Positions 986 to 39,230 of a stretch of 64,000 nucleotides of DNA are shown here, one piece after another. The position numbers and the translations under genes are program-made. The notes beneath the pieces were generated by a model. That model ran no database searches. It was given only the letters and a program-made list of their open reading frames with translations, and was not told the origin of the DNA. Source of the stretch: an uncultured Poribacteria bacterium (lineage in GTDB: Bacteria; Poribacteria; WGA-4E; WGA-3G); NCBI GenBank assembly GCA_951813565.1, contig OX638351.1, positions 5,216,001-5,280,000 of the forward strand, given 5' to 3'. Position 1 is the first letter of the stretch. Every line of letters begins with the position of its first letter.

Positions 986-1182
986 ACTATGTTTACGCTT
1001 CCTCTATCCGTTTATGTTGATTAGTACACGCTAATCTGAAAAGCATTATAGCACATACCTTTTTAGTTTATCAAGGGTTTCTAAATGCGGTGTAAATATT
1101 TGTAAATTTCTGAATGTCATAGCACCCACAGCGTAAACGCTGGGGCTTGTGCTTCGTAGCAGTTAGCCTTTTTTCAAAGGTC

Positions 1183-2304
1183 TCACATCTGCTCCACAAG
1201 GGGTTCTAAGCAGCCCCGAAGTATATTGATAGCAGCGTTTATATCTCTATCGTGGTGTGAACCACATTCATTGCATATCCACTGCCTATCTGCAAGAGAA
1301 AGATTATTGTTAGAATGTCCGCAGTTGCTACAAGGTTTTGTTGTAGGTGACCACTGTCCGACTTGATGGCATGCACGATTATGTTTGAAACATTTGAACT
1401 TCACAATCTGAACAAACTGATAGAAACCGAGGTCGGAGACTTTACGTCCCCAGAGTCTTTTCATTCCGTCAAGGTTGAGCGTTTCGGTGACGATAATGTC
1501 AAAGCGTCTGCAAAGGTCTGTAGCAAGTTTCCAGTGCCAATCTCTGCGTTGGTTGCTAACTTTGATATAGAGCCGTGTGAGTTGTCTGATAGCACGATAC
1601 CAGTTGTTAGACCCCTTGACTTTGCGACTAAGGGACTTATTCAGTTTGCGAAGTTGTTTCAAAGATTGTTTATGGAACTGCGGAGACTCTATTTTTTCAC
1701 CAGTGCTGATTGTCAGAAAAGTTTTCAAACCGAAGTCTACGCCCACGCTCTCACCTGTTTGTTGCATAGGTTCGGTAGAAGTATTATCGGTGATGATATA
1801 GAGCCAGTATTCACCAGCATTATCACGAAGGATTTGGATATATCGGACATCTCCGTGCCAGTTGCGGTGTTGATGGAAAGAGAACCAAACACGATTGACT
1901 TTCAAAGATTTAGAATGCATGTCCCACGATTTGAAAGAGAGACGCACACGCCCATCTTCAAGTTTGTAGCCTGTTTGGAACTTAGCAGAACGGTATCTAT
2001 GTTTTCGCTTCGGTTTCGGATGACCGCCTTGACCAGCAAAGAAACGTTGGTATGCGTCATGGATACGGATAATCGCAGCGTCAAGGGTGTCACGAGGTAT
2101 CCAAGCCCAATGTTTATGGGTGCGTTTCAGCAACTTGGTAAGATGCGGTTGCAACTTGTATCTACCAGCATATTTGCCGTAGATGCGGTAATATCGCTTT
2201 TCAAGACGCAGAAAGTGATTATGCACATCACACAAGTCATCAAGCATGTTGCCCAAACGTTTGTTCTTTGGGTGATTGCGTCCCTTATATTTATAGGTTC
2301 GCAT
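1183..2304 (-). CDS. tnpB: RNA-guided endonuclease TnpB
   Basis: RuvC motifs GVDFGLK, ETLNL and HDRDINAAINI, plus a CxxC..CxxC zinc finger. Confidence 0.95.
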   Translation of the reverse strand: MRTYKYKGRNHPKNKRLGNMLDDLCDVHNHFLRLEKRYYRIYGKYAGRYKLQPHLTKLLKRTHKHWAWIPRDTLDAAIIRIHDAYQRFFAGQGGHPKPKRKHRYRSAKFQTGYKLEDGRVRLSFKSWDMHSKSLKVNRVWFSFHQHRNWHGDVRYIQILRDNAGEYWLYIITDNTSTEPMQQTGESVGVDFGLKTFLTISTGEKIESPQFHKQSLKQLRKLNKSLSRKVKGSNNWYRAIRQLTRLYIKVSNQRRDWHWKLATDLCRRFDIIVTETLNLDGMKRLWGRKVSDLGFYQFVQIVKFKCFKHNRACHQVGQWSPTTKPCSNCGHSNNNLSLADRQWICNECGSHHDRDINAAINILRGCLEPLVEQM

Positions 2305-2393
2305 TACTTTACTCCAGCATTACTTCCGATTCCATTCGGTTTCGGTAGAGACCACCTCATGCGAGGTGGATGGAATTCTCTACCTGTAATGCT
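2305..2393 (-). ncRNA. Putative structured 5' leader RNA of tnpB (multi-stem junction with pseudoknot)
   Basis: Stems CAGCATTAC/GTAATGCTG, GGTAGAGA/TCTCTACC, CCACCTC/GAGGTGG and CCGA/TCGG. Bulge ATTCCAT is complementary to ATGGAAT in the last hairpin. Confidence 0.6.
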
Positions 2394-2399
2394 GAGAAT

Positions 2400-2429
2400 A
2401 GTTTAACACACTTGGCACATAATTGTCAA
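2400..2429 (-). promoter_or_regulatory. Sigma70-type promoter of tnpB element 1
   Basis: TTGACA-18 nt-TAAACT with an extended TG. Confidence 0.6.
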
Positions 2430-2534
2430 GCAAAAAAAAGAACGGGCATTCCTCCCCGACCTAAAGCAACGGGGTCTCCTGCCCGAAGATTGATGAATAA
2501 CGGACTTGCGAGGATGAGGATTTCACAGGTTTTT

Positions 2535-2760
2535 GTTGGGTTTCGCTTCGCTCTACCTATAGGTGTCAACTTAAGAAAAATGCTGGATTTTCTCTTGTGG
2601 GAGGGAAACCTTGAAAGCCCGATTTTGTGAGTGTTAACCTGTTAAATCGGGGTTGAAAACCCGCCAAATGCCAAAAAGCGCATTTGGCGTTGATTCACTC
2701 CCACAAGAAGGTATCCTTAAGTTGACATTTATGGGTTTCGCTTCGCTCTACCCAACCTAC
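2535..2760. repeat. Composite repeat: MITE-B (TIR CATAGGTGTCAAYTTAAG) flanked by a duplicated REP GGGTTTCGCTTCGCTCTACC, with an internal REP pair and one hairpin cassette
   Basis: Same layout recurs near 10381-10606, 16266-16762, 34908-35243 and 57273-57655. Confidence 0.75.
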
Positions 2761-2789
2761 AAACGAAGATACCATTCCAATGATAACTA

Positions 2790-3896
2790 TTAATCTTTCA
2801 ACGGGTCTACAGCAATACGAATAGCGTCTTGACGGAACGCATGTGCAAAAGCATCGTCAATATCAGACAAAGGATAAATCTCTCCAATAAGTCCTGCAAA
2901 TGGATACTGCTTCCTACTTCTTTCTATAAAACTCAGAGCAGATTTCAGCACACTGGGATGATAGTTGTGAATACCCCGCAGATTTATACATTTTGTAACA
3001 AGTTGATGAACATTAAACGGAATGTTTTCAAGTGGATAGACATACCCAAGCGTCAAACATCTCCCACCGATTCCCAACCACTCAATCAAATCAGGGAGGG
3101 CAGACGGTGCCCCACTCACTTCAACAGCAAGGTCAACACCGCGTCCACGCGTCAGTTCTTTTAACTTTTCAGAAATGTCTTCGGCAGATGTACTACTTGT
3201 ATTAAATGTGTGTGTTGCACCGAACTGTTCAGCAATCTGTAAGCGGTTTGCGTTTTTATCTACAATTGCTACGATGTCGTAACCTTGCTCTTGCAGAAAA
3301 CATACAGCATAGATGCCCAACATACCAGCACCGTGTATAATCGCTGTCTCACCCGGATATGTTCCAATTGTTTCCAAACCGTTAATAACTGTTGCAAGAG
3401 CACAATTAATAGGGACCGCTTCCTCATCTTTTATCGCATCAGGAATATGATAGATTGTTGTCCCCGCTTTCAACTGAATATGTGATGCAAATCCACCAGA
3501 TAACGTATTTTCATCTGCACACTGGGCATGCCCGTATTTAAACATCGTTTCGCATTTTTGTGGTAGGTTTTTATTTAAACAATAATGACATGCACTACAA
3601 GAAGTCGTCAGACTCCAAATAATTCTGTCGCCTGCACGAAGTAATTTTCCTTCAGCAGAACGCAGACGTGTAGATGCTGCGACAGTACCGACTACCTCAT
3701 GTCCAAGTACACATGGCACTTCCGCGCTGCGTCTGCCCGATACAGTGTGAAGGTCAGAACCACAAATAGTTGCTAACGCAACCTGCACCAGAACAGTGTC
3801 TGCAGTAGCCTTCACAGGCACTTCGCAAATCCCAAATAGGGTGTCTACACCCTGAAATAATGCAATCTGGGCAGCTTCCTTTATGTTTTTAGACAT
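2790..3896 (-). CDS. Zinc-binding alcohol dehydrogenase, putative phosphonate-catabolism-associated (HpnZ-like)
   Basis: ICGSDLH, GHE, structural Zn cysteines, GAGMLG. The LPQKC..KYGH..LSGGFASH segment recalls the phosphonate-associated ADH family. Lies next to phnA. Confidence 0.75.
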   Translation of the reverse strand: MSKNIKEAAQIALFQGVDTLFGICEVPVKATADTVLVQVALATICGSDLHTVSGRRSAEVPCVLGHEVVGTVAASTRLRSAEGKLLRAGDRIIWSLTTSCSACHYCLNKNLPQKCETMFKYGHAQCADENTLSGGFASHIQLKAGTTIYHIPDAIKDEEAVPINCALATVINGLETIGTYPGETAIIHGAGMLGIYAVCFLQEQGYDIVAIVDKNANRLQIAEQFGATHTFNTSSTSAEDISEKLKELTRGRGVDLAVEVSGAPSALPDLIEWLGIGGRCLTLGYVYPLENIPFNVHQLVTKCINLRGIHNYHPSVLKSALSFIERSRKQYPFAGLIGEIYPLSDIDDAFAHAFRQDAIRIAVDPLKD

Positions 3897-3951
3897 TTAT
3901 TCTCCTATCCTAAAATTTGAAAACTAATATATGAATTGTCTAACATTTTAC

Positions 3952-3980
3952 TTGCCACGTCAAGTATTATTTCGTATAAT
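3952..3980 (+). promoter_or_regulatory. Sigma70 promoter of argB
   Basis: TTGCCA-17 nt-TATAAT. Confidence 0.65.
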
Positions 3981-4019
3981 TTATCAACAAGATACATTAT
4001 CAAAAGGAAATAAAATTAA

Positions 4020-4898
4020 ATGAGCCGAACTGCCGACGTTCTTATTGAAGCTTTACCTTATATCCAACGCTTTTACAACCGTAGAATTGTGATAAAATAT
4101 GGCGGTGCAGCGATGGAGGACGAATTACTCATTCACTCCGTAATGGAAGACATTGTTTTGATGAAATATGTTGGTATGCGTCCAATTGTCGTGCACGGCG
4201 GCGGTCCCAAAATCAATACTTGGATGGACAAAGTAGGAAAAGAAGCAGAATTTGTGCAGGGGTTGCGTGTAACCGATGCCGAAACCGTCGAAATTGCTGA
4301 AATGGTCTTAGCAGGAACTATCAACAAAGGCATTGTTGCACGTATCAATCAACATGGCGGTAAGGCGATCGGGCTTTGTGGTAAGGACGCGAATCTAATC
4401 GTTGCTGAAAAACATACTCCGAAAATAATGGATGAAGATGGAAACGAAACCACAGTAGATATCGGATACGTCGGCAAAATCATCGGTGTCAACACGCAGC
4501 CGATTATCACACTTGATGAGGCAGGATACATCCCTGTAATTGCGCCTAACGGAACAGGGGTTGATGGACAAACCTATAATATTAATGCGGATACAATGGC
4601 AGGTGAAATCGCTTCGGCACTTCAAGCCGAAAAACTGATTTTATTGACAGATACCCGTGGAATCTGTAAAGATGCTGAAGATATTTCTACACTTATCCCA
4701 ACTATACGTATGAAGCAAATAAACGCCCTTATTGATGACGGTGTAATTAAGGACGGGATGATACCCAAAATTGAAGCATGTGCCACGGCACTTCTCGGCG
4801 GCGTATCAAAAACACATATTATTGATGGCAAAATTCAGCATTCCCTCCTACTTGAAGTTCTCACAGAAGGCGGTATCGGGACCGAAATTATTAGGTAA
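4020..4898 (+). CDS. argB: Acetylglutamate kinase
   Basis: VIKYGGAAM, VHGGGP, NINAD, GMIPK and HIIDG motifs. Confidence 0.97.
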   Translation: MSRTADVLIEALPYIQRFYNRRIVIKYGGAAMEDELLIHSVMEDIVLMKYVGMRPIVVHGGGPKINTWMDKVGKEAEFVQGLRVTDAETVEIAEMVLAGTINKGIVARINQHGGKAIGLCGKDANLIVAEKHTPKIMDEDGNETTVDIGYVGKIIGVNTQPIITLDEAGYIPVIAPNGTGVDGQTYNINADTMAGEIASALQAEKLILLTDTRGICKDAEDISTLIPTIRMKQINALIDDGVIKDGMIPKIEACATALLGGVSKTHIIDGKIQHSLLLEVLTEGGIGTEIIR

Positions 4899-4917
4899 AC
4901 TTCAGAGAGAAAACACT

Positions 4918-6084
4918 ATGGAAAACCGAAAGAAAATCGCAGCAATCATCACTACCTATTTTCAACACTCTCATGCAGATGTAATCGCAACAAAATACAT
5001 GAAAGGCTTTCCGACAGATGAAGGGCATCGAATGCCGCGTGTTGAATTGGTATCCATCTATCTGGATCAGGTAGATTCACGAGACATAGGGGTCGGTTTA
5101 GCAAAAGAACATGGAGTGCCGATATATCCCAGCATTCGGCAAGCGTTAACGCTCGGTGGCGGTGAACTTGCAGTCGATGGTGTGCTCCTTATCGGTGAAC
5201 ACGGTGACTATCCGCATAACGAGTTTGAACAACACATGTATCCGCGCCGTTATATGTTTGAACAAATTTGCGGTGTGTTTGCCTCAAGTGGTCGATCTGT
5301 TCCTGTGTTCTGTGACAAACACCTTTCATATAATTGGGATGATGCTAATTGGATGTACGAGCGAGCTAAAGCGCTTGAAGTGCCATTCATGGCGGGTTCT
5401 TCGCTGCCGACTTGTTGGCGACAACCTTTTTTGGAACACACACTTGACATGTCTTTGGAATCGGCTATTGGGATAGGTTACGGCGGCGTAGAGTCGTACG
5501 GCTTTCACGCACTTGAGACGTTGCAATGTATGACGGAACGCCGACAAGGCGGCGAATCTGGTGTGGTTGCTATTCAATGTCTTGAAGGTGAGACTGTTTG
5601 GGAAGCAGCTGAGACAGGTCAATGGTCAATGGAGTTAGCAGATGCTGCGTGCGCCCAAATCAAAAATCGTCCGGACAAAACGATTAATGAAGGATGTCCG
5701 AACCCAACTCTGTTCCTAATAGAGCATCGGGATGGTTTTCATTCCGCAGTGCTGATGTTGAATGGCTATGTCACGGACTTCGCTTATGCGGGGAAACATG
5801 GTGATAATATCTATGCAACGGAATTTTATCTACAAAACGGCCCACCACATGCGCATTTTAGCTATTTGAGTCTTAACATTGAGGAGATGTTTGTGACAGG
5901 CACGCCGCAATATCCTGTGGAACGCACCTTGTTGACAACCGGCATTCTGGATGCCATCATGCACTCGCGCGCGCAAGGAAATATCCGACTTCAAACGCCA
6001 CATTTAGCGGAACTTGCGTATCGTTCCTACGACCATACACTTATCCGACCAACAGCACCACGCCCAGAAGGTGCTACATTATAG
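4918..6084 (+). CDS. Conserved hypothetical protein, oxidoreductase-like (Gfo/Idh/MocA-related)
   Basis: Likely start MENRKK at 4918. Contains VDGVLLIGEHGDYP, PVFCDKHLS and YGFHALE. Confidence 0.6.
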   Translation: MENRKKIAAIITTYFQHSHADVIATKYMKGFPTDEGHRMPRVELVSIYLDQVDSRDIGVGLAKEHGVPIYPSIRQALTLGGGELAVDGVLLIGEHGDYPHNEFEQHMYPRRYMFEQICGVFASSGRSVPVFCDKHLSYNWDDANWMYERAKALEVPFMAGSSLPTCWRQPFLEHTLDMSLESAIGIGYGGVESYGFHALETLQCMTERRQGGESGVVAIQCLEGETVWEAAETGQWSMELADAACAQIKNRPDKTINEGCPNPTLFLIEHRDGFHSAVLMLNGYVTDFAYAGKHGDNIYATEFYLQNGPPHAHFSYLSLNIEEMFVTGTPQYPVERTLLTTGILDAIMHSRAQGNIRLQTPHLAELAYRSYDHTLIRPTAPRPEGATL

Positions 6085-6232
6085 TAGATTTTACAATTAC
6101 TTATACACTACGACAAGCGAGGTTAGGAAACCTCCAAATCAAGAAATCAACGGTATGAATCATGGCATTCACATTAAACGCATCAAACTTTTGACATACT
6201 CCCCAAGCTAAAGCATGGGGATTCTTCTATCA

Positions 6233-7390
6233 TCAGAGACTGCCTGCCGAGGCAGGTGTTACGTCTCCTCCTGAAAAGGTTGACGCCCCAACCTTATGAA
6301 TGTTTATAGCAGCGTTTATATCGCGGTCATGAGAGATTTTACAATTATGGCAATACCAATCGCGCACACTCAAATTAAAGAACATTTGGATTTGTCCGCA
6401 GGAATGGCAAACTTTACTTGTGGGTGTCCATCTGTCAATCTGCTTGACATGCTTGCATCGTTTTTGTGCTTGCCATTCGAATTTCTGCATGAAGTCTGCA
6501 AAGCCGTAGTCAGAGACTTTTCGTCCCCAGAGGCGTTTCATGCCGTCAAGGTTCAAGTCTTCAAAGAAACAGACATCAAACTTTCTGACAAGTTCAAGCG
6601 CGAGTTTCCAATGATGGTCTTCACGTTGCCGATTGATTTTCCTGTGTACCCGTGCAAGGTCTTTCCTCGCACACTCGCGATTGTTGCTGCCTTTCTGCTT
6701 CCGAGACAACGCACGGCTCGCACGTTTTATCAGTTTAGCAGCAGATTTATAGCATTCAGGAGATTGATATTTCGTGCCATCGGAACAGGTGAGGAAGTGC
6801 TTGAGTCCAAAGTCAAACCCTGCTGTCCTACCAGTCTTAGGTGCAGGCTCAAGTCCCTCAGTGTCTGTTGTGATAGTGATATACCAATCCCCTACAAAGT
6901 CTTTCTTAACGGTAACCTGTTTGATGTTGCCTTCAATAGGTCGGCTATACCAGAATCGGTACCAGCGTCTATTGATACGGATTTTCGCAACGGGGCAGCC
7001 ATCTATTTTGTCAATAGTTTCTATCTTAACTTGGCTACCATCAAAAGTCATAGATTTGTATTTATACCGACTTCTAAATTTAGGCGGACGCTTGGCTCTA
7101 CCTTCAAAGAAGTTTTGCCAACCTCTGTCAACACGTTGGATACATTCCTGCAAACACCAAGAATACGGAACAGTCCAGTGTTGATATTTAGCAAGTCGTT
7201 TCAGTTTCGTCAGATGTTTAATCATTCTGTAGCAGCTTGGACGCTTATAGTCTTCGCAATGTCCGTAGATGCGATAGTGACGCTGCCACAACGCAATAAA
7301 ATGGTTGTGGACATGCGCAATGATACGCAGGTCTTTTTGCAGATGACGATTGCGTTTATGTTTTTGTCCCTTGTATTTGTAGGTTCGCAT
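6233..7390 (-). CDS. tnpB: RNA-guided endonuclease TnpB
   Basis: GFDFGLK, FEDLNL, HDRDINAAINI and a zinc finger. Confidence 0.95.
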   Translation of the reverse strand: MRTYKYKGQKHKRNRHLQKDLRIIAHVHNHFIALWQRHYRIYGHCEDYKRPSCYRMIKHLTKLKRLAKYQHWTVPYSWCLQECIQRVDRGWQNFFEGRAKRPPKFRSRYKYKSMTFDGSQVKIETIDKIDGCPVAKIRINRRWYRFWYSRPIEGNIKQVTVKKDFVGDWYITITTDTEGLEPAPKTGRTAGFDFGLKHFLTCSDGTKYQSPECYKSAAKLIKRASRALSRKQKGSNNRECARKDLARVHRKINRQREDHHWKLALELVRKFDVCFFEDLNLDGMKRLWGRKVSDYGFADFMQKFEWQAQKRCKHVKQIDRWTPTSKVCHSCGQIQMFFNLSVRDWYCHNCKISHDRDINAAINIHKVGASTFSGGDVTPASAGSL

Positions 7391-7474
7391 TACATATCCT
7401 TCGCATTACAATACCACTTTCAAATGGTGCGGTGGCACTCTCAAGCGAGAGGTGAAATCCACCGCTGTAATACT
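7391..7474 (-). ncRNA. Putative structured 5' leader RNA of tnpB
   Basis: GTATTACA/TGTAATGC, GCGGTGG/CCACCGC, CTCTC/GAGAG and ACCAT/GTGGT stems. Bulge TTTCA is complementary to loop TGAAA. Confidence 0.6.
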
Positions 7475-7480
7475 GGAGAT

Positions 7481-7509
7481 AGTATAACACAAACGCAAGG
7501 AAAAATCAA
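7481..7509 (-). promoter_or_regulatory. Sigma70-type promoter of tnpB element 2
   Basis: TTGATT-17 nt-TATACT with an extended TG. Confidence 0.6.
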
Positions 7510-7618
7510 CAAAAAAATGGAGACGTTAGCGGTGTCTACATCCCCGAGCTAAAGCAACGGGGTTTTGACACCGAAGATTGATAAAGAACTTGTAAAGATA
7601 ATTTTAGATTTCACTATA

Positions 7619-7776
7619 ATAACGCAAGTTGCTACTTACAAAATTTTGAACAAAAAGACGATGTTTTTCCTAAAAAACAAGGGTTTTTCGTTGATTCTGG
7701 ATGTCTTTTGTTATAAATCGGGGTTAGAAACCCCTCCTACAAGAGAATTTACGAAATCGGTAGCAACTTGGGTTAT
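7619..7776. repeat. MITE-A (TA-ACCYAAGTTGCYAC...GTRGCAACTTRGGT-TA) with an internal GTAG REP
   Basis: Four similar copies in the window with terminal inverted repeats and TA flanks. Confidence 0.8.
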
Positions 7777-8304: not shown

Positions 8305-8816
8305 TCAGGATTCCTATGAAATAGGGGTTATGATCGTAATACATATCATAATATAGAATTTTCTTGATACTTGCAAGCGTTATTCATGGGTGTACAGGGT
8401 TATACCGAATTAACTTGATCCTACTCGGTAGAAGCCAAATCATGGAGAATGTCAAACGCGCATTCTCCATGATTTGGCAATGAATAGCGGACTACAACAC
8501 GTTTCTTGTTATTGATAGGAAATCATTCAGAAATGGTGTTAGAGCCTTTATAGAATGAGGTGTTTGGCATAGTAGCATAACGAAAGGATTCAACGACTTC
8601 TATTAGGTTTTAACGTCTGTGAAGAGGTTAAGTTATACCAATTCTATGAATTATTTTCTCTTTTGAAATGAGATGTAAGAGGCGCAATGAATTGCGCGAC
8701 TACGAACAGGCTATTTTTTTTGAGATGTTATTTTTTAGAAACCGAAAAGTCGCGACCAGGAGGTCGCTCCTACAGGGAAGAGAAGAGCGTTAAGAATATG
8801 GGCTTACAAAGCCTTT

Positions 8817-10277
8817 TTACATTCTTTGCCGAAGTTTAAGGATTTTGAGCCACTTTTGCGCTTTAGGTATACTTATGTCAAGCGGTTCTTTCATCTCATA
8901 ACATTCGGTTTGCCCAGCATAGATGTGATGCCAATCAACAATGCACGGCATTTTCTGTTTTTTAAGGTTTCGCATGAGGTATCCGCGAACTCTTGCACGC
9001 GTATTGCAAGGTGCGTTACTGATAGCATCGCTAATTTGCTGGTCTGTGATAACCTGTCTCATACACCCTTCGCTTTGAAGTGCGTAAAAGATACTATTCT
9101 CAGGGTCAATATTGTGGTATTCTAAATCCAAACTTTTGAGCCATGGATCATCCCACGTCAACTCCTCTTCGTCTACTAAAGCATCAAGAAACCATTTCTT
9201 TGCTGCCCAATCAAGCCGCGTTGTAAGTCGTGTCCAATCCGTTTCAAGATCGTTGAGCACAGTTTCCCATTCGGTAAGAATCCACTTAGCAGTTTCGTCA
9301 AGTTCCGTTAATACGTTTTGGACAAAGTTGAGATATACGCGTTGAATGTCAATAGCAGAAACAGTGCTGCCGTTCTGCAAATCGACCTCCCATTTGAGAG
9401 AAGTATCCCGTGAGATGTGTCTGATAGCAGCAATAGGGTCAGCAAGATCGAGATTCGGTATCGGAAGTTTTTCTCCATGAATTTCATAATGCCGCTCAAT
9501 TGCATCAAGGATAAGTGCTGTTGTCCCAACTTTAAGGGCAGTCGCATATTCCGACATATTAGAGTCTCCTACAAGAAGATGGAGTCTGCGGTATTTTGTA
9601 TAATCACTAAGAGGCTCGTCACGAGTATTGATTATCGCTCGGCTAAACTGAATCCATTCATAGATTTCAGTGACGATGTGATCCGCCCGTTGGGAAATTT
9701 GGTATCCGAGAAAATCGTCAACGCTATATTGCCCATCTCCAAATTCAAGGATGTCATCGTATCCACCGACTCTGCCAGCACCAGCGTATATTTGGCGAGT
9801 CACAAAGAATGGGAGTAGTGTTGGGATGACGATCCTATAAAACGGAACATCACGGCGCGCCTGAAAGTTTTCGTGGCATCCGAAAGTTGCTCCTGTGAAA
9901 TGGTCTATGTTGTTTTTATAAAAGGCTACGTGTGCGGAAAGACCGGTATCCCGCAAAATTGCTGTGATGATGTGTTCAATGGCTTTATCGTAAGCGATGA
10001 GGTCAAACAGGTTTGCACATTCCGGCGTAGCATATTCAAGATGTCCCATATCAATGTAGAGCCTGCCGCCGTTGAAGAGGAAACCGCCATTGCCGGGTGG
10101 TTCACCCCAATCGCGATAGTGGAGATCGGGGATACCGAGTTCAAGTGTTTTAAAAACATAGTCTCTGACGCGCGCAGCAATACCTTCAGGTGATATTTTG
10201 ATACGTTGTGTCTGTATCGCCTGCGACTGTATCATGCACCCAAATTCGGTTTCGATACCCATTATTCTGTGTGTCAC
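8817..10277 (-). CDS. pafA: Pup/UBact-protein ligase (PafA)
   Basis: GIETEFG, NGGRLYIDMGHLEYATPEC, GCHENF, RAIINTRDEPL and RRLHLLVGDSNMS. Confidence 0.9.
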   Translation of the reverse strand: MTHRIMGIETEFGCMIQSQAIQTQRIKISPEGIAARVRDYVFKTLELGIPDLHYRDWGEPPGNGGFLFNGGRLYIDMGHLEYATPECANLFDLIAYDKAIEHIITAILRDTGLSAHVAFYKNNIDHFTGATFGCHENFQARRDVPFYRIVIPTLLPFFVTRQIYAGAGRVGGYDDILEFGDGQYSVDDFLGYQISQRADHIVTEIYEWIQFSRAIINTRDEPLSDYTKYRRLHLLVGDSNMSEYATALKVGTTALILDAIERHYEIHGEKLPIPNLDLADPIAAIRHISRDTSLKWEVDLQNGSTVSAIDIQRVYLNFVQNVLTELDETAKWILTEWETVLNDLETDWTRLTTRLDWAAKKWFLDALVDEEELTWDDPWLKSLDLEYHNIDPENSIFYALQSEGCMRQVITDQQISDAISNAPCNTRARVRGYLMRNLKKQKMPCIVDWHHIYAGQTECYEMKEPLDISIPKAQKWLKILKLRQRM

Positions 10278-26088: not shown

Positions 26089-26230
26089 GTGATACCACCC
26101 ACTACCTAAAGGTAGGGGCTTCGGTTTCATCGCGATTGCGCTGTTTCCGAAGAAATCAGCGTCTTACTTTCGCTCCACCAGCAGGCTCTTATGCCGTATC
26201 AGAACGGTTTTATCGTGCATTATCACACGG
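26089..26230 (-). ncRNA. Predicted omegaRNA/reRNA scaffold of tnpB element 4
   Basis: About 130 nt non-coding, hairpin-rich segment between the tnpB stop and the right end. Shares GTGGAGC..GT(A/G)AGAC with element 1. Confidence 0.6.
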
Positions 26231-27332
26231 GTACCCCAGCCTGCAATATATTGATAGCAGCGTTGATGTCTCTATCGTGATGCGTCTGACATTGTTGGCA
26301 CGTCCAGTGCCTATCGGTGAGTTGTAAATCGTTGTTGCTGTGTCCGCAATGATGACACGGTTTGGTTGTGGGTTGCCATTTATCTGTTTTGGCAAGCACT
26401 TTCCCATATTTGTGGCAAGTCCATTCAAGAATGAGTGCAAACTCACCGAAGGCAATATCGGAGACTTTACGACCCCACAATCGTTTCATCGCATCAAGAT
26501 GAAGCGTTTCAATCGCAATGTAATCATATTTGTGAACGAGACGCAATGCTACCTTGAAAAACCAGTCTCTTCGTTGATTCGCTATCTTCTTATACGCGCG
26601 AGAAAGGTGGCGTTTCGCTTTATACCATCCATTAGATAAGTATGTCTTGCGAGATAACCCTTTGTGCGCACAACGGATAGCCCTGAGACTGTTCTTATAG
26701 AACTCGGGAGACTTTATCTGCGTGCCATCTGACAATGTGAGAAATGTTTTGAGACCAAAATCTATCCCTGCTCTATGACCTGTCTTGGGAAGATGTGCTA
26801 TCGGTTCAGATGCATTACAAGTCAGTATAAGATAATAATCCCCGACATTATCACGCTTGATCGTGACGGTTTTGATTTGACACGTCCAATCGCAATGTTT
26901 CCAAAAAGTAAACCACTTTTTTAGACAACTGATATAGATACGATTACCTTCAATCTTATAGCCCGCTTGTGTGAATGTCATGGAGTTATATTTATGTTGT
27001 GGTTTGATATGCGGTTTACCGATCCTTTTGGTCGTTTTACCGGATCGACGGTCTTCTATGTTTTGAAAAAACCTTTGGTAGCCTTTATCAATACGAAACA
27101 CAACATCTTGAATAACTTGGCTCGGTAGTTGGTTCCAATGTGGTTTTGTCCGTTTCTTCAACTTCGCAATATGCTTGTTCATTGTATACACAGGTATGTA
27201 TTTGCCAAATAGACGATAATAACGCCTTTGCAACTTCAGAACATGCACATGCACCTGATGTAGATCATCAAGCAGGTTGCCAAGTCGGATTAGATTAGAT
27301 TGGTGAGATAACTCGTATTTATACGCTTTCAT
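26223..27332 (-). CDS. tnpB: RNA-guided endonuclease TnpB
   Basis: GIDFGLK, IETLHL, HDRDINAAINI and a zinc finger. Confidence 0.95.
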   Translation of the reverse strand: MKAYKYELSHQSNLIRLGNLLDDLHQVHVHVLKLQRRYYRLFGKYIPVYTMNKHIAKLKKRTKPHWNQLPSQVIQDVVFRIDKGYQRFFQNIEDRRSGKTTKRIGKPHIKPQHKYNSMTFTQAGYKIEGNRIYISCLKKWFTFWKHCDWTCQIKTVTIKRDNVGDYYLILTCNASEPIAHLPKTGHRAGIDFGLKTFLTLSDGTQIKSPEFYKNSLRAIRCAHKGLSRKTYLSNGWYKAKRHLSRAYKKIANQRRDWFFKVALRLVHKYDYIAIETLHLDAMKRLWGRKVSDIAFGEFALILEWTCHKYGKVLAKTDKWQPTTKPCHHCGHSNNDLQLTDRHWTCQQCQTHHDRDINAAINILQAGVPV

Positions 27333-27492
27333 TGGTCGGTAAGTATATCATATCTATGAGGATAGACAAGGTTTTTTGTGTAAATAGTGGTCTGAGCCCG
27401 TCTACATCCCACAAGCTGAAGCATGGGGATTTGACGGGAAGGTGTTAACACATATACGATCACTACCTGTCAGTTTCAATACTGTCAAGTGT

Positions 27493-34146: not shown

Positions 34147-34405
34147 TGTAGAACATCTCCTCCTCGCAAGTAGACGAAAATATTGGTGCTATAAACCTTA
34201 AGATTTTGTATGGCAAGTAATTTATCATAAAAATGAAATATGTGCAAATCAAATCTTTCAGGGCAAGATTATTTAGTTTTAAGAATTACCAGTTGATGCG
34301 TGTTACTGAAAGTTTATATTGTCCGTTGGGTAGAGTTTTTGGAAACCGAACTCGTATGCGCAAATGTCGGGTTTTGCACGCTCTACCCAACGAACAATAC
34401 TATAA

Positions 34406-34780
34406 TATACTATACTTTGGACAATTTTAGCTGTTTTCGTGAGGTTGGGTTAGAGAAAAACATATAGTTTTCATATTGGACACCTGTCGCCCCGCTGGGG
34501 CTGAAGCGGGTTGTTTACCGCGTTTCTATACACCTGTCGCCCCGCTGGGGCTGCCCAAAAGGTATTTTGGACGAGTTCTTTCAGCAAGCAAAATCGCAGA
34601 AAATATAAATAATATAAGATGACACCTTAGCCCCAGCGGGGCGACAGGTATATAGAAGAAGGTAATTGCCGCTGTCTAAAGCCCCAGCGGGGCGACAGGT
34701 GTCCAATATTTTGCTTTGGACACCTAACAGTTTCTCAGCAAGTCCTCGAACAATATGTAAATTGTCCAAACTATAGTATA
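34406..34780. repeat. MITE-D containing four (ACCTGT)CGCCCCGCTGGGGCT REPs, two direct and two inverted
   Basis: TIR TATACTATACTTTGGACAATTT/AAATTGTCCAAACTATAGTATA. Confidence 0.7.
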
Positions 34781-34783
34781 ATA

Positions 34784-35348
34784 TAACGTGAGTTTGATAA
34801 TTAACTGGACAGGCAAAAATTGAACAGAGAACGGGCATATTTGCTGAAAAAATCGTTATTTTGGTGTTTTTAACCCCTAATACCACATTAACTTGATTCA
34901 TATTTATGGAGCAGTTAGGAAAACGTACCTTATGCATCAATTTAAGGATATACCCTCTTGTGGGAGTGAATCAACGCAGCATGCGCGTCCGGCATGCTGC
35001 CAAATCAACGCCAAATGCGCTTTTTGGCATTTGGCGGGTTTTCAACCCCGATTTTCTTCTGTAGGAGCGACCTCCCGGTCGCGAGCTGGAGCTCGCTCCT
35101 ACAGAATGTCCGAGGCGACAAGTCATGGCGAATACCACGCGTATTCGCCCAAGTGCGCTTGGCGTTGATTTGGCAATGAATTGCGCGACTACGCTTTTTT
35201 TCTTAAATTGACAGTTATGGTGCGGTTAGGAAACCGCACCTACCGTCCGGAAAATGCGATAAATCCCGTTAATTTGGTATAAATCCCCCTTATCAGAGGA
35301 CTTTAAGAGGAAATGTAGAAATCCTAACTATTTATCAAACTCACGTTA
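34784..35348. repeat. MITE-C (TAACGTGAGTTTGATAA TIR) containing MITE-B, REPs and hairpin cassettes
   Basis: Perfect 17-bp TIR, repeated at 57089-57690. Confidence 0.75.
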
Positions 35349-37840: not shown

Positions 37841-39230
37841 TTGACATACTCCCCAAGCTAAAGCATGGGGATTCTTCTATCATCAGAGACAACCTGCCGA
37901 AGCGGGTATTACGTCTCCTCCTGAAAAGGTTGACGCCCCAACCTTATGAATGTTTATAGCAGCGTTTATATCGCGGTCATGAGAGATTTTACAATTATGG
38001 CAATACCAATCGCGCAGATTCAAATCAAAGAACTTATGGATTTGTCCGCAGGAATGGCAAACTTTACTTGTGGGTGTCCATCTGTCAATCTGCTTGACAT
38101 GCTTGCATCGTTTTTGTGCTTGCCATTTGATTTTCAGCATGAAATCTGCAAAGGCGTAGTCAGAGACTTTTCGTCCCCAGAGTCGTTTCATGCCGTCAAG
38201 GTTCAAGTCTTCAAAGTAGCAGACATCAAACTTTCGGACAAGTTCAAGTGCGAGTTTCCAGTGATGGTCTTCACGTTGCCGATTGATTTTCCTGTGTACC
38301 CGTGCAAGGTCTTTCCTCGCACGCTCGCGATTGTTGCTGCCTTTTTGCTTCCGAGACAACGCACGGCTCGCACGTTTTATCAGTTTAGCAGCAGATTTAT
38401 AGCATTCAGGAGATTGATATTTCGTGCCATCGGAACAGGTGAGGAAGTGCTTGAGTCCAAAGTCAAACCCTGCTGTCCTACCAGTCTTAGGTGCAGGCTC
38501 AAGTCCCTCAGTGTCTGTTGTGATAGTGATATACCAATCCCCTACAAAGTCTTTCTTAACGGTAACTCGTTTGATGTTGCCTTCAATAGGTCGGCTATAC
38601 CAGAATCGGTACCAGCGTCTATTGATACGGATTTTCGCAACGGGGCAGCCATCTATTTTGTTTATAGTTTCTATCTTAACTTGGCTACCATCAAAAGTCA
38701 TAGATTTATATTTATACCGACTTCTAAATTTAGGCGGACGCTTGGCTCTACCTTCAAAGAAGTTTTGCCAACCTCTGTCAACACGTTGGATACATTCCTG
38801 CAAACACCAAGAATACGGAACAGTCCAGTGTTGATATTTAGCAAGTCGTTTCAGTTTCGTCAGATGTTTAATCATTCTGTAGCAGCTTGGACGCTTATAG
38901 TCTTCGCAATGTCCGTAGATGCGATAGTGACGCTGCCACAACGCAACAAAATGGTTGTGGACATGCGCAATGATACGCAGGTCTTTTTGCAGATGACGAT
39001 TGCGTTTATGTTTTTGTCCCTTGTATTTGTAGGTTCGCATTACATATCCTTCGCATTACAATACCACTTTCAAATGGTGCGGTGGCACTCTCAAGCGAGA
39101 GGTGAAATCCACCGCTGTAATACTGAAGATAGTATAACACAAACGCAAGGAAAAATCAACAAAAAAATGGAGACGTTAGCGGTGTCTACATCCCCGAGCT
39201 AAAGCAACGGGGTTTTGACACCGAAGATTG
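37841..39230 (-). mobile_element. IS200/IS605 family tnpB-only element 3 (isoform of element 2), including the 5' leader at 39041-39124
   Basis: Near-identical to 6191-7580; target TTAT at 39231-39234. Confidence 0.92.
37883..39040 (-). CDS. tnpB: RNA-guided endonuclease TnpB
   Basis: Intact RuvC D/E/D motifs and a zinc finger. Confidence 0.95.
   Translation of the reverse strand: MRTYKYKGQKHKRNRHLQKDLRIIAHVHNHFVALWQRHYRIYGHCEDYKRPSCYRMIKHLTKLKRLAKYQHWTVPYSWCLQECIQRVDRGWQNFFEGRAKRPPKFRSRYKYKSMTFDGSQVKIETINKIDGCPVAKIRINRRWYRFWYSRPIEGNIKRVTVKKDFVGDWYITITTDTEGLEPAPKTGRTAGFDFGLKHFLTCSDGTKYQSPECYKSAAKLIKRASRALSRKQKGSNNRERARKDLARVHRKINRQREDHHWKLALELVRKFDVCYFEDLNLDGMKRLWGRKVSDYAFADFMLKIKWQAQKRCKHVKQIDRWTPTSKVCHSCGQIHKFFDLNLRDWYCHNCKISHDRDINAAINIHKVGASTFSGGDVIPASAGCL

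Follow-up and report, generated by a model that had tools for sequence, protein, structure and literature searches.

Elements of the IS200/IS605 superfamily in which tnpB stands alone between a left and a right end are classed as IS1341-type (PMC9956272). Elements with tnpB encode structured RNAs which have been described as the TnpB omegaRNA, RAGATH-18 and IS605-orfB-I, the last being named as RF03065 in the available part of PMC11701678. The omegaRNA lies downstream of tnpB (PMC10691335), whereas the leader analyzed here lies upstream, in elements with a separate conserved 3' scaffold, and so it is not an omegaRNA. The RF03065 model has 214 positions against about 93 nt in the leader, and it found no match in the source genome at E values up to 1, control genomes being equally silent. 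The homing endonuclease genes of T-even phages (I-TevI, I-TevII, I-TevIII, segB and mobE) are likewise selfish nuclease genes with a 5' RNA structure where translation is initiated, and the likeness extends to our leader in that it is also found before GIY-YIG endonuclease genes. Each T-even structure is a single hairpin which contains a second, late promoter as its switch (PMC2988022), whereas the leader starts at +1 of its own promoter and has a three-way junction, a kissing interaction (kiss) and two registers. A sigma-70-type scan found no late promoter inside the structure, and the sole promoter-like site near the leader lies upstream of all of it. In the same superfamily as our elements, the 5' stem-loop of IS200 tnpA lowers translation 20-fold and can yield a small RNA. 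It differs from the leader in standing before tnpA, in hiding the Shine-Dalgarno in one stem and in working with the antisense RNA art200 and Hfq (PMC5435999); no pseudoknot or duplicated strand is mentioned in the available text of that paper.

Judged by sequence comparison, the leader is a real and uncatalogued RNA family, a 5' structure before selfish nuclease genes with two unusual and testable features, and its function is inferred. With a probability of about 0.45, the leader is part of a portable promoter-plus-leader cassette and would work in cis as a sliding-stem switch by which selfish nuclease genes limit their own translation.

The tnpB elements of the window and their leaders

The window, i.e. 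the whole 64-kb stretch of DNA which was analyzed, possesses four tnpB genes. All are on the minus strand, are confirmed by Pfam and are flanked by a left-end hairpin and a 3' guide-RNA scaffold without tnpA. With tnpB alone between the left and right ends, the four elements belong to the IS1341 group. The source genome has 47 tnpB loci, and intact tnpA genes and tnpA-tnpB copies are found at its other sites. Element 1 (1116..2492, minus strand) was delimited from four genome copies, whose common sequence extends from the left-end motif as far as the terminal TGAC. Its left-end hairpin (2444..2484) is seen in the sequence and is common to the copies. The tnpB gene (1183..2304) codes for 373 aa, and the RuvC residues D190, E274 and D354 (element 1 TnpB numbering) are invariant across 12 aligned TnpBs. 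Among the relatives listed for this TnpB, 79 of 80 are titled Poribacteria. The 3' omegaRNA scaffold with the right-end hairpin (1116..1220, 5' limit approximate) is kept among the copies and is placed as expected for TnpB guide RNAs. Element 2 (6191..7580, minus strand; tnpB 6233-7390, 385 aa) and element 3 (37841..39230, minus strand; tnpB 37883-39040) are 97.8% identical, so they count as one example and not as two. Their TnpB is divergent from that of element 1, as the earlier note on this DNA had said (41% identity). Element 4 (26089..27443, minus strand; tnpB 26223-27332) has a promoter and no leader, with only 9 nt between the -10 box and the ATG, and is a natural leaderless control.

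The leader of element 1 (minus strand 2393-2301, ~93 nt) folds into a three-way junction in which a bulge pairs with the last loop. It is preceded by a sigma-70-type promoter at 2400..2429 (-35 box 2429-2424, -10 box 2405-2400), which has 10 of 12 consensus matches and a TG extension. Such sites are of little weight by themselves, as a scan of the 2-kb region found five against 3.5 expected and was not significant alone. In elements 1, 2 and 3, pairing sets in after a gap of six bases behind the -10 box. Six bases past the -10 box is the usual start-site distance, hence the transcript is predicted to start on the first base of the closing stem; from this promoter spacing, the +1 of element 1 would be 2393, the first base of P1. 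The 5' strand of P1 (2386..2393), placed by folding and alignment, would thus form the first bases of the transcript. It is followed by an arm at 2344..2384, composed of P2 (2384-2377/2351-2344), a 7-nt kissing bulge (2376-2370) and the cap hairpin P3 (2369-2352). The P4 hairpin (2326..2339) then presents the loop bases 2335-2329, which pair with the bulge. Copy 1 of the P1 3' strand (2316..2323) gives the proximal register, which leaves the Shine-Dalgarno and the AUG free. The Shine-Dalgarno GGAG (2312..2315, at -11) lies between the copies, and copy 2 (2301..2307), which gives the distal register, contains the tnpB AUG (2304-2302). In element 2, the leader is at 7387..7474 on the minus strand, with the -10 box at 7486-7481, bulge 7457-7453 facing loop 7422-7418, copy 1 at 7410-7403 and copy 2, with the AUG, at 7394-7387. 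The element 3 leader (39037..39124, minus strand) has copy 1 at 39060-39053 and copy 2 at 39044-39037.

The stems named in the earlier note were all found directly upstream of the Pfam-confirmed tnpB genes, as was the complementarity of bulge and final loop, which spans 7 bp in element 1 against 5 bp in the other two elements. The element 1 leader folds at -43.1 kcal/mol, and the folding z-scores of elements 1, 2 and 3 are -6.7, -4.0 and -4.6, with 0 of 200 shuffles as stable for each. Some of the earlier statements stand in part. The equivalent placement of the promoters holds for the six-base gap. The fold is common to elements 1 and 2/3, which make two examples. The closing stem had been said to abut or cover the Shine-Dalgarno; with a start at 2393, it adjoins the GGAG of element 1 and leaves it uncovered. 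The kissing loop, at least 25 nt upstream of the AUG, holds no Shine-Dalgarno. In host genes the use of GGAG peaks at -11, the same place as in element 1, and a canonical 16S tail is present. The claim that the tnpB message possesses a second RNA module at its 5' end, which is conserved separately and begins at the predicted +1, is borne out. Contigs from four RNA runs include pieces over the leader and coding start (X1 record 6, 7213-7475; X2 record 13, 2213-2380). They have a depth of 4-6, come from other strains and, as contigs, cannot reveal start, strand or level, and were not used as evidence.

Conservation and distribution of the leader

Comparison of the leader sequences showed a three-way junction and a kiss, either bulge-loop or loop-loop, and also that the first 7-8 bases of the RNA have two 3' partners which can replace each other. 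In the source genome, at least six divergent types of TnpB have this fold before them. Four leader types were distinguished, namely A (element 1), B, C (a plain loop, without cap hairpin) and D (elements 2 and 3), and hardly any unpaired base is common to all of them. The covariation which had been noticed between two leaders extends across homologs. The 14 aligned type-A leaders have 97.1% of cells paired and two-sided changes in 17 of 32 pairs, with 95.9% and 4 of 7 pairs for the kiss between P4 loop and bulge. The alignment of 37 type-B leaders, which omits two leaders with long inserts, has 97.7% of cells paired and two-sided changes in 19 of 33 pairs, including 5 of 7 kissing pairs. None of 500 shuffles matched the pairing, two-sided-change or covariation values; for the number of further pair types, 27 and 150 of the 500 did. 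These controls ignore relatedness, and many different pair types occur per column. Sliding the partners lowered the pairing to 26-44%. Within the source genome, the kiss of the element-2 copies already carries a two-sided change. When a model of the third type (37 leaders) was run on the 64 kb, the three window leaders ranked at the top of 8 matches (E 2e-7, 0.008 and 0.011).

The type-B model matched 66 of 121 Poribacteria genomes and the type-A model 90 of 150. The matches span two or so families and four to six genera of Poribacteria, with up to 34 or more copies. The spread so far is one phylum, the sponge-associated Poribacteria. Searches outside it covered several kinds of records. The type-B model, run on 92 of 164 TnpB loci from metagenomes, viruses and plasmids, gave a single match with E 1.4, and the type-B pattern had no match in IMG/VR. 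In 120 upstream regions outside Poribacteria, a structural descriptor gave 12 AT-rich matches at a score of at least 25 and none at 27 or above, with one match in a crude shuffle control. Folding of 84 of these regions and inspection of the 22 most stable revealed mostly left-end hairpins and no such leader. The type-A model found nothing in five whole records outside Poribacteria and, among GIY-YIG loci (45 of 64 searched), matched 4 of 45, close relatives only. The samples outside Poribacteria were small and gut-phage heavy, so that the leader was not found there does not imply its absence. Within the source genome a loose descriptor was unspecific, its 247 matches being mostly repeats and chance, and a promoter-anchored descriptor gave 67 matches, at least 41 of them distinct. 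A loose-descriptor match over the -10 box of a large tnpA-remnant family was false and was not counted as a leader. That family is the most abundant tnpB family of the genome (g0, g2, g6 and ~20 more), and in it tnpA is reduced to its last ~40 bases upstream of tnpB. Full tnpA-tnpB copies (g3, g13, g27 and g31) coexist with it. The TnpB of this family is also found behind a type-C leader, which points to an exchange of left-hand modules.

The leader matched no Rfam family. Rfam 15 gave no match in the window at gathering score. At E values up to 10, the region 1000-7700 gave two weak matches, neither on a leader, and ten further loci gave four chance-level matches, one of which was a 41-nt snoRNA fragment on the strand opposite a leader. 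No description of this leader was found in the literature, where subscription journals are mostly outside coverage and the supplement of PMC5737381, with its motif descriptions, may bear on novelty. Control of TnpB expression in tnpA-less elements was likewise not found, the work found being concerned with the 3' guide RNA. The available text of PMC10691335 mentions no leader or UTR, and that of PMC10278001 and PMC11061315 no native 5' leader.

Two registers of the closing stem and the genes that follow

The leader has two copies of the 3' strand of its closing stem, the second of which tracks every change of the 5' strand. In the 37 type-B leaders the distal copy is 97.7% paired with two-sided changes in 6 of 6 pairs, and the proximal copy 94.2% with 6 of 7. 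Among 85 type-B leaders, both copies are complementary in 79, only the distal one in 5 and only the proximal one in 1. Type A possesses two perfect 6-bp copies in 46 of 50 leaders, against a chance level of 2.8% at similar stringency. In 24 leaders of types A, C and D two copies were found in 23 under lenient settings (chance 33%) and in 14 under strict ones (chance 2.8%). The copies flank the Shine-Dalgarno in elements 1-3, where the AUG is inside copy 2; over the TnpB elements, copy 2 contains the AUG or ends ~5-7 nt upstream of it. The two registers are close in predicted energy. With the kiss left out of the model, element 1 gave -36.8 and -36.1 kcal/mol (gap 0.7) and a 70:30 ensemble, and 80 type-B leaders a mean gap of +2.1 kcal/mol, 11 of them favouring the distal register. 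For elements 2 and 3, where folding began 2 nt before the predicted +1, the ensembles were 67:31 and 45:54.

A CC dinucleotide is found within 8 nt after copy 2 in 35 of 46 type-A and 71 of 85 type-B leaders, compared with a background of 14-25%. A tRNA mimic ending in CCA was considered and rejected, since only CC is common and its spacing is variable. An upstream mini-ORF from an AUG in copy 1 was rejected too, its frame and length not being conserved. A role of copy 2 as the Shine-Dalgarno in type B was likewise rejected as a weak case, host GTGA peaking at -8/-7 and not at -10. Three type-A leaders (L089, L090 and L029) are without the P2-P3 arm and retain both P1 copies, and two members of the element 1 clade (L055 and L077) have no leader.

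In the switch which we favour, transcription would start on the first P1 base, and copy 1, emerging first, would pair with it and leave the ribosome-binding site open (ON). The 5' strand would then slide to copy 2, burying the AUG in the window elements and the -12 to -6 zone in the other types (OFF). As the register energies are nearly equal, the kiss and the junction may govern how the two are balanced or how long the change is delayed, so that nuclease would be made for a short time or at a low, steady rate, and the paired 5' end probably also protects the message. Time, magnesium, the ribosome or a host factor may be what tips the switch. There is precedent in the structures which hide the ribosome site of T4 homing endonucleases (PMC2988022) and of IS200 tnpA (PMC5435999). 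The translational switch put forward in the earlier note thus remains the likeliest job of the leader, by a route other than the one claimed, namely two registers of the closing stem. As a closing stem with two covarying registers, it would be an unusual and directly testable switch design. At ~95 nt the leader is an easily synthesized candidate with hundreds of natural variants, and leaderless elements, single-copy variants and unmatched kisses provide natural controls.

The genes behind the leader bear on this reading in both directions. Type B precedes 7 of 12 TnpB clusters, several clusters use two leader types, and one near-invariant leader serves TnpBs which are 21-84% identical to that of element 1. 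Among 64 type-B leaders, 57 stand before an ORF which matches TnpB in BLASTP; the other seven ORFs have a TnpB-like beginning, cut or frameshifted as judged by eye. Of the best 30 type-A loci, 26 precede TnpB (two judged from the first codons at contig ends) and 4 do not. In 20 further regions 17 of 23 strong matches precede non-TnpB cargo, a proportion which is not a rate because these regions were chosen partly for having no listed TnpB match. The non-TnpB cargo comprises five genes for GIY-YIG endonucleases (phage head-type genes surround four of these), an MvaI/BcnI restriction-modification pair, a type III methyltransferase-like gene (judged by eye), a trypsin-like gene and small genes of unknown kind. 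Nine pattern matches in IMG/VR, some of which repeat loci already counted, fall before GIY-YIG genes in five cases (each with a different kiss), before other genes in two and by chance in two. A 450-bp mini-element of the source genome has the left end, promoter, intact leader and guide scaffold without TnpB. The kiss and the duplicated strand are kept in nearly all non-TnpB contexts, and the leader also occurs where no IS left end exists. On this distribution, the promoter-leader cassette is portable and not TnpB-specific. Its presence in TnpB elements, prophage GIY-YIG and restriction-modification loci suggests that unrelated selfish nucleases trade one expression module. Two of the GIY-YIG loci, L383 (G110:C1:84000-102000) and L385 (G151:C37), are prophage-like; they contain head-type genes and, on the opposite strand, two or three GIY-YIG genes which are free-standing. 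One GIY-YIG clade carries the leader there, and a GIY-YIG/NUMOD3 gene in L383 does not.

That the commonest cargo is a nuclease is a point for the translation switch. In the window elements the AUG lies within the distal pairing; no effect on the ribosome-binding site is predicted before the GIY-YIG genes. There, copy 2 ends ~20 nt upstream of the AUG, and with forced registers the predicted access to -14..-5 hardly changes (0.37/0.37, 0.52/0.49 and 0.41/0.50). In four loci (L388, L391, L401 and L402) P1 has changed so that neither copy contains an AUG, the next start lies ~30 to 290 nt past copy 2, and both copies are kept. Also against the switch, one copy (locus g16) has only the AUG-containing repeat, the TnpB-less mini-element keeps an intact leader, and leaderless elements and the tnpA-remnant family of 20-plus copies spread without one. 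The switch is rated at about 0.45 because copy 2 lies too far upstream before the GIY-YIG and unknown genes and because these four AUG-less loci keep both repeats, facts which favour action on RNA polymerase or RNases.

RNA antiterminators of the put type bind RNA polymerase and suppress termination in cis. A leader acting on the host transcription or decay machinery, either in this put-like way or as a 5' stabilizer, is a possible alternative, although we consider it unlikely. Foreign or untranslated RNA would be transcribed through to the guide and kept intact, and the second copy would serve to re-form the stem during synthesis or behind a ribosome. This agrees with the position of the leader, fixed in every type at the +1 of a consensus promoter, and with its independence of the cargo and of the distance to the start codon. 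It is also consistent with the type-B core, near-invariant whatever the TnpB (difference 0.03-0.05), with the confinement of the matches to four to six Poribacteria genera and with the leader kept in the TnpB-less mini-element. It leaves unexplained why copy 2 falls on the AUG or in the initiation zone in four TnpB leader types.

The kissing interaction and further elements of the genome

The kiss is the fastest-changing part of the leader. Among 85 type-B leaders it has 37 distinct 7-mers between almost invariant flanking core, and its pairing is nearly always exact, with 579 Watson-Crick (97%), 8 G-U and 8 mismatched of 595 cells; the cap stem has 53 G-U. The central four kiss positions have 1.5-1.7 bits, the cap stem 0.6-1.4 and the free promoter spacer 1.9-2.0. 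In 14 pairs with TnpBs at least 90% identical the differing sites amount to 0.50 in the kiss, 0.38 in the spacer and 0.20 in the cap stem, and in 16 pairs of leaders which are 1.3% apart elsewhere 14% of kiss sites differ; these pairs are few and not independent, many being from G051. The kiss thus diverges at least as fast as the spacer, though each change takes two substitutions. Its strength is confined, 35 of 36 perfect kisses having 2-3 G-C pairs, and a 6-nt palindrome occurs in none of the 36. Diversifying selection on the kiss is suggested, on pairs that are few and not independent and with recombination between copies visible: two patchwork recombinants (L082 and L148) have unmatched kisses, so that block exchange can inflate the rate. 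Copying of a guide or target into the kiss was considered and rejected, no relation having been found. The strength-matched but orthogonal natural kisses may be of interest for RNA structure and RNA assembly.

A cis-acting switch does not explain the fast change of the kiss. Like the leader, the phi29 pRNA has a closing helix and a junction, from which two arms extend: one is capped and has an internal loop, and the other is a hairpin whose loop is complementary to it (PMC3479190). It differs in being a separate phage RNA which forms rings on the prohead (PMC3479190), and type-C leaders use a plain loop in place of the bulge; no Rfam match to it and no packaging motor were found, the context of the leader being IS elements. 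The kiss statistics, together with this likeness in layout, keep alive a self-recognition code. The kiss would then be an address: transcripts with the same strength-matched code would recognize each other and pair hand in hand, the contact would slide the closing stem onto the start codon and silence the family as its copy number rises, and mutants with a new code would escape. We regard this as doubtful. The 37 7-mers, the near-spacer entropy, the 97% Watson-Crick pairing, the excess of kiss changes in both sets of close pairs and the missing palindromes agree with it, and pRNA multimerizes through its CE and D loops (PMC3479190). Intramolecular and like-with-like intermolecular pairing cannot be separated by sequence, however. 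Besides the non-independence of the pairs and the two recombinants, G-U intermediates occur in kisses as in ordinary compensatory drift, and an identical kiss recurs before unrelated cargo. If the code were real, selfish nucleases would need nothing but RNA-RNA pairing to count their own copies, escape from silencing would select for new codes, and TnpB transposons and phage homing endonucleases would have in common a protein-free system of copy-number control or incompatibility.

The autoregulatory operator of the earlier note, bound by free TnpB, has little probability. Apo TnpB acts on its own mRNA (PMC10278001) and most leaders precede tnpB, but a near-invariant leader before divergent TnpBs (7 of 12 clusters), single clusters with two leader types and the occurrence before GIY-YIG and other genes make such an operator unlikely. 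A self-cleaving or self-processing RNA, which would release the leader or cap the message, is as improbable. Its model would be Pistol (RF02679), in which a hairpin loop is likewise pseudoknotted with a strand joining two stems; the leader is circularly permuted with an extra closing stem, type B has an A-rich linker after the pseudoknotted part and many type-B positions are invariant. However, RF02679 had no match in the source genome, where the control scored only below the cut-off, and hardly any unpaired base is common across the leader types. In Pistol the cleavage site is an unpaired G-U where P2 and P3 are joined, accompanied by purine 32 and G40 (PMC6154101), whereas the leader stems are contiguous on the 3' side, with no unpaired base at their junction and no linker before the kissing strand. 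Lastly, a tracr-like partner of the omegaRNA acting in trans, also raised earlier, or an ssDNA fold used in transposition is suggested by the place of the leader inside the element near the left end and is equally improbable. The longest complementarity of the leader to its own element's 3' RNA (6.86 nt; 63 full type-B elements) or guide is not above controls (6.80 nt for others' RNA, 6.45 nt for shuffles), and the leader is present where no IS left end exists. That it acts as RNA is indicated by the G-U pairs, which are on the transcribed strand, by cap loops of the GNRA type and by the constant spacing behind the -10 box.

Some further elements were seen in the source genome. Nine copies are listed of a TnpB-less mini-element (L345, G000:C1 611040-611454, plus strand) which has a left end, ~270 nt of structured-looking non-coding cargo, and omegaRNA with right end. 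This cargo has no obvious promoter and no Rfam match, and we presume that it might be an intron-like or HEARO-like RNA. A second TnpB-less family (L346, G000:C1:2117800-2118212, plus strand, five copies; L347, 5295840, minus strand) has a left end, a promoter, a different 88-nt RNA and omegaRNA. The first bases of this RNA pair with its end, with a two-sided change between two variants; it has no Rfam match and was seen in no other locus of the comparison. At G000:C1:2829564-2831900 (minus strand; L351 and L352), a 519-aa frame with an RRXRR domain (IscB-like) adjoins a CRISPR-like repeat array; it may be an IscB associated with CRISPR or a small Cas9. Several kinds of short, intergenic palindromic repeat occur in the window (2560-2760 and 8560-8790) and at many genome sites. 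A ~375-bp repeat with internal inverted repeats has more than 10 near-identical copies, one at about 34400-34790 of the window. A gene of the Pup-ligase family, relating to the pupylation pathway in Poribacteria, is found at 8817-10277 on the minus strand of the window.
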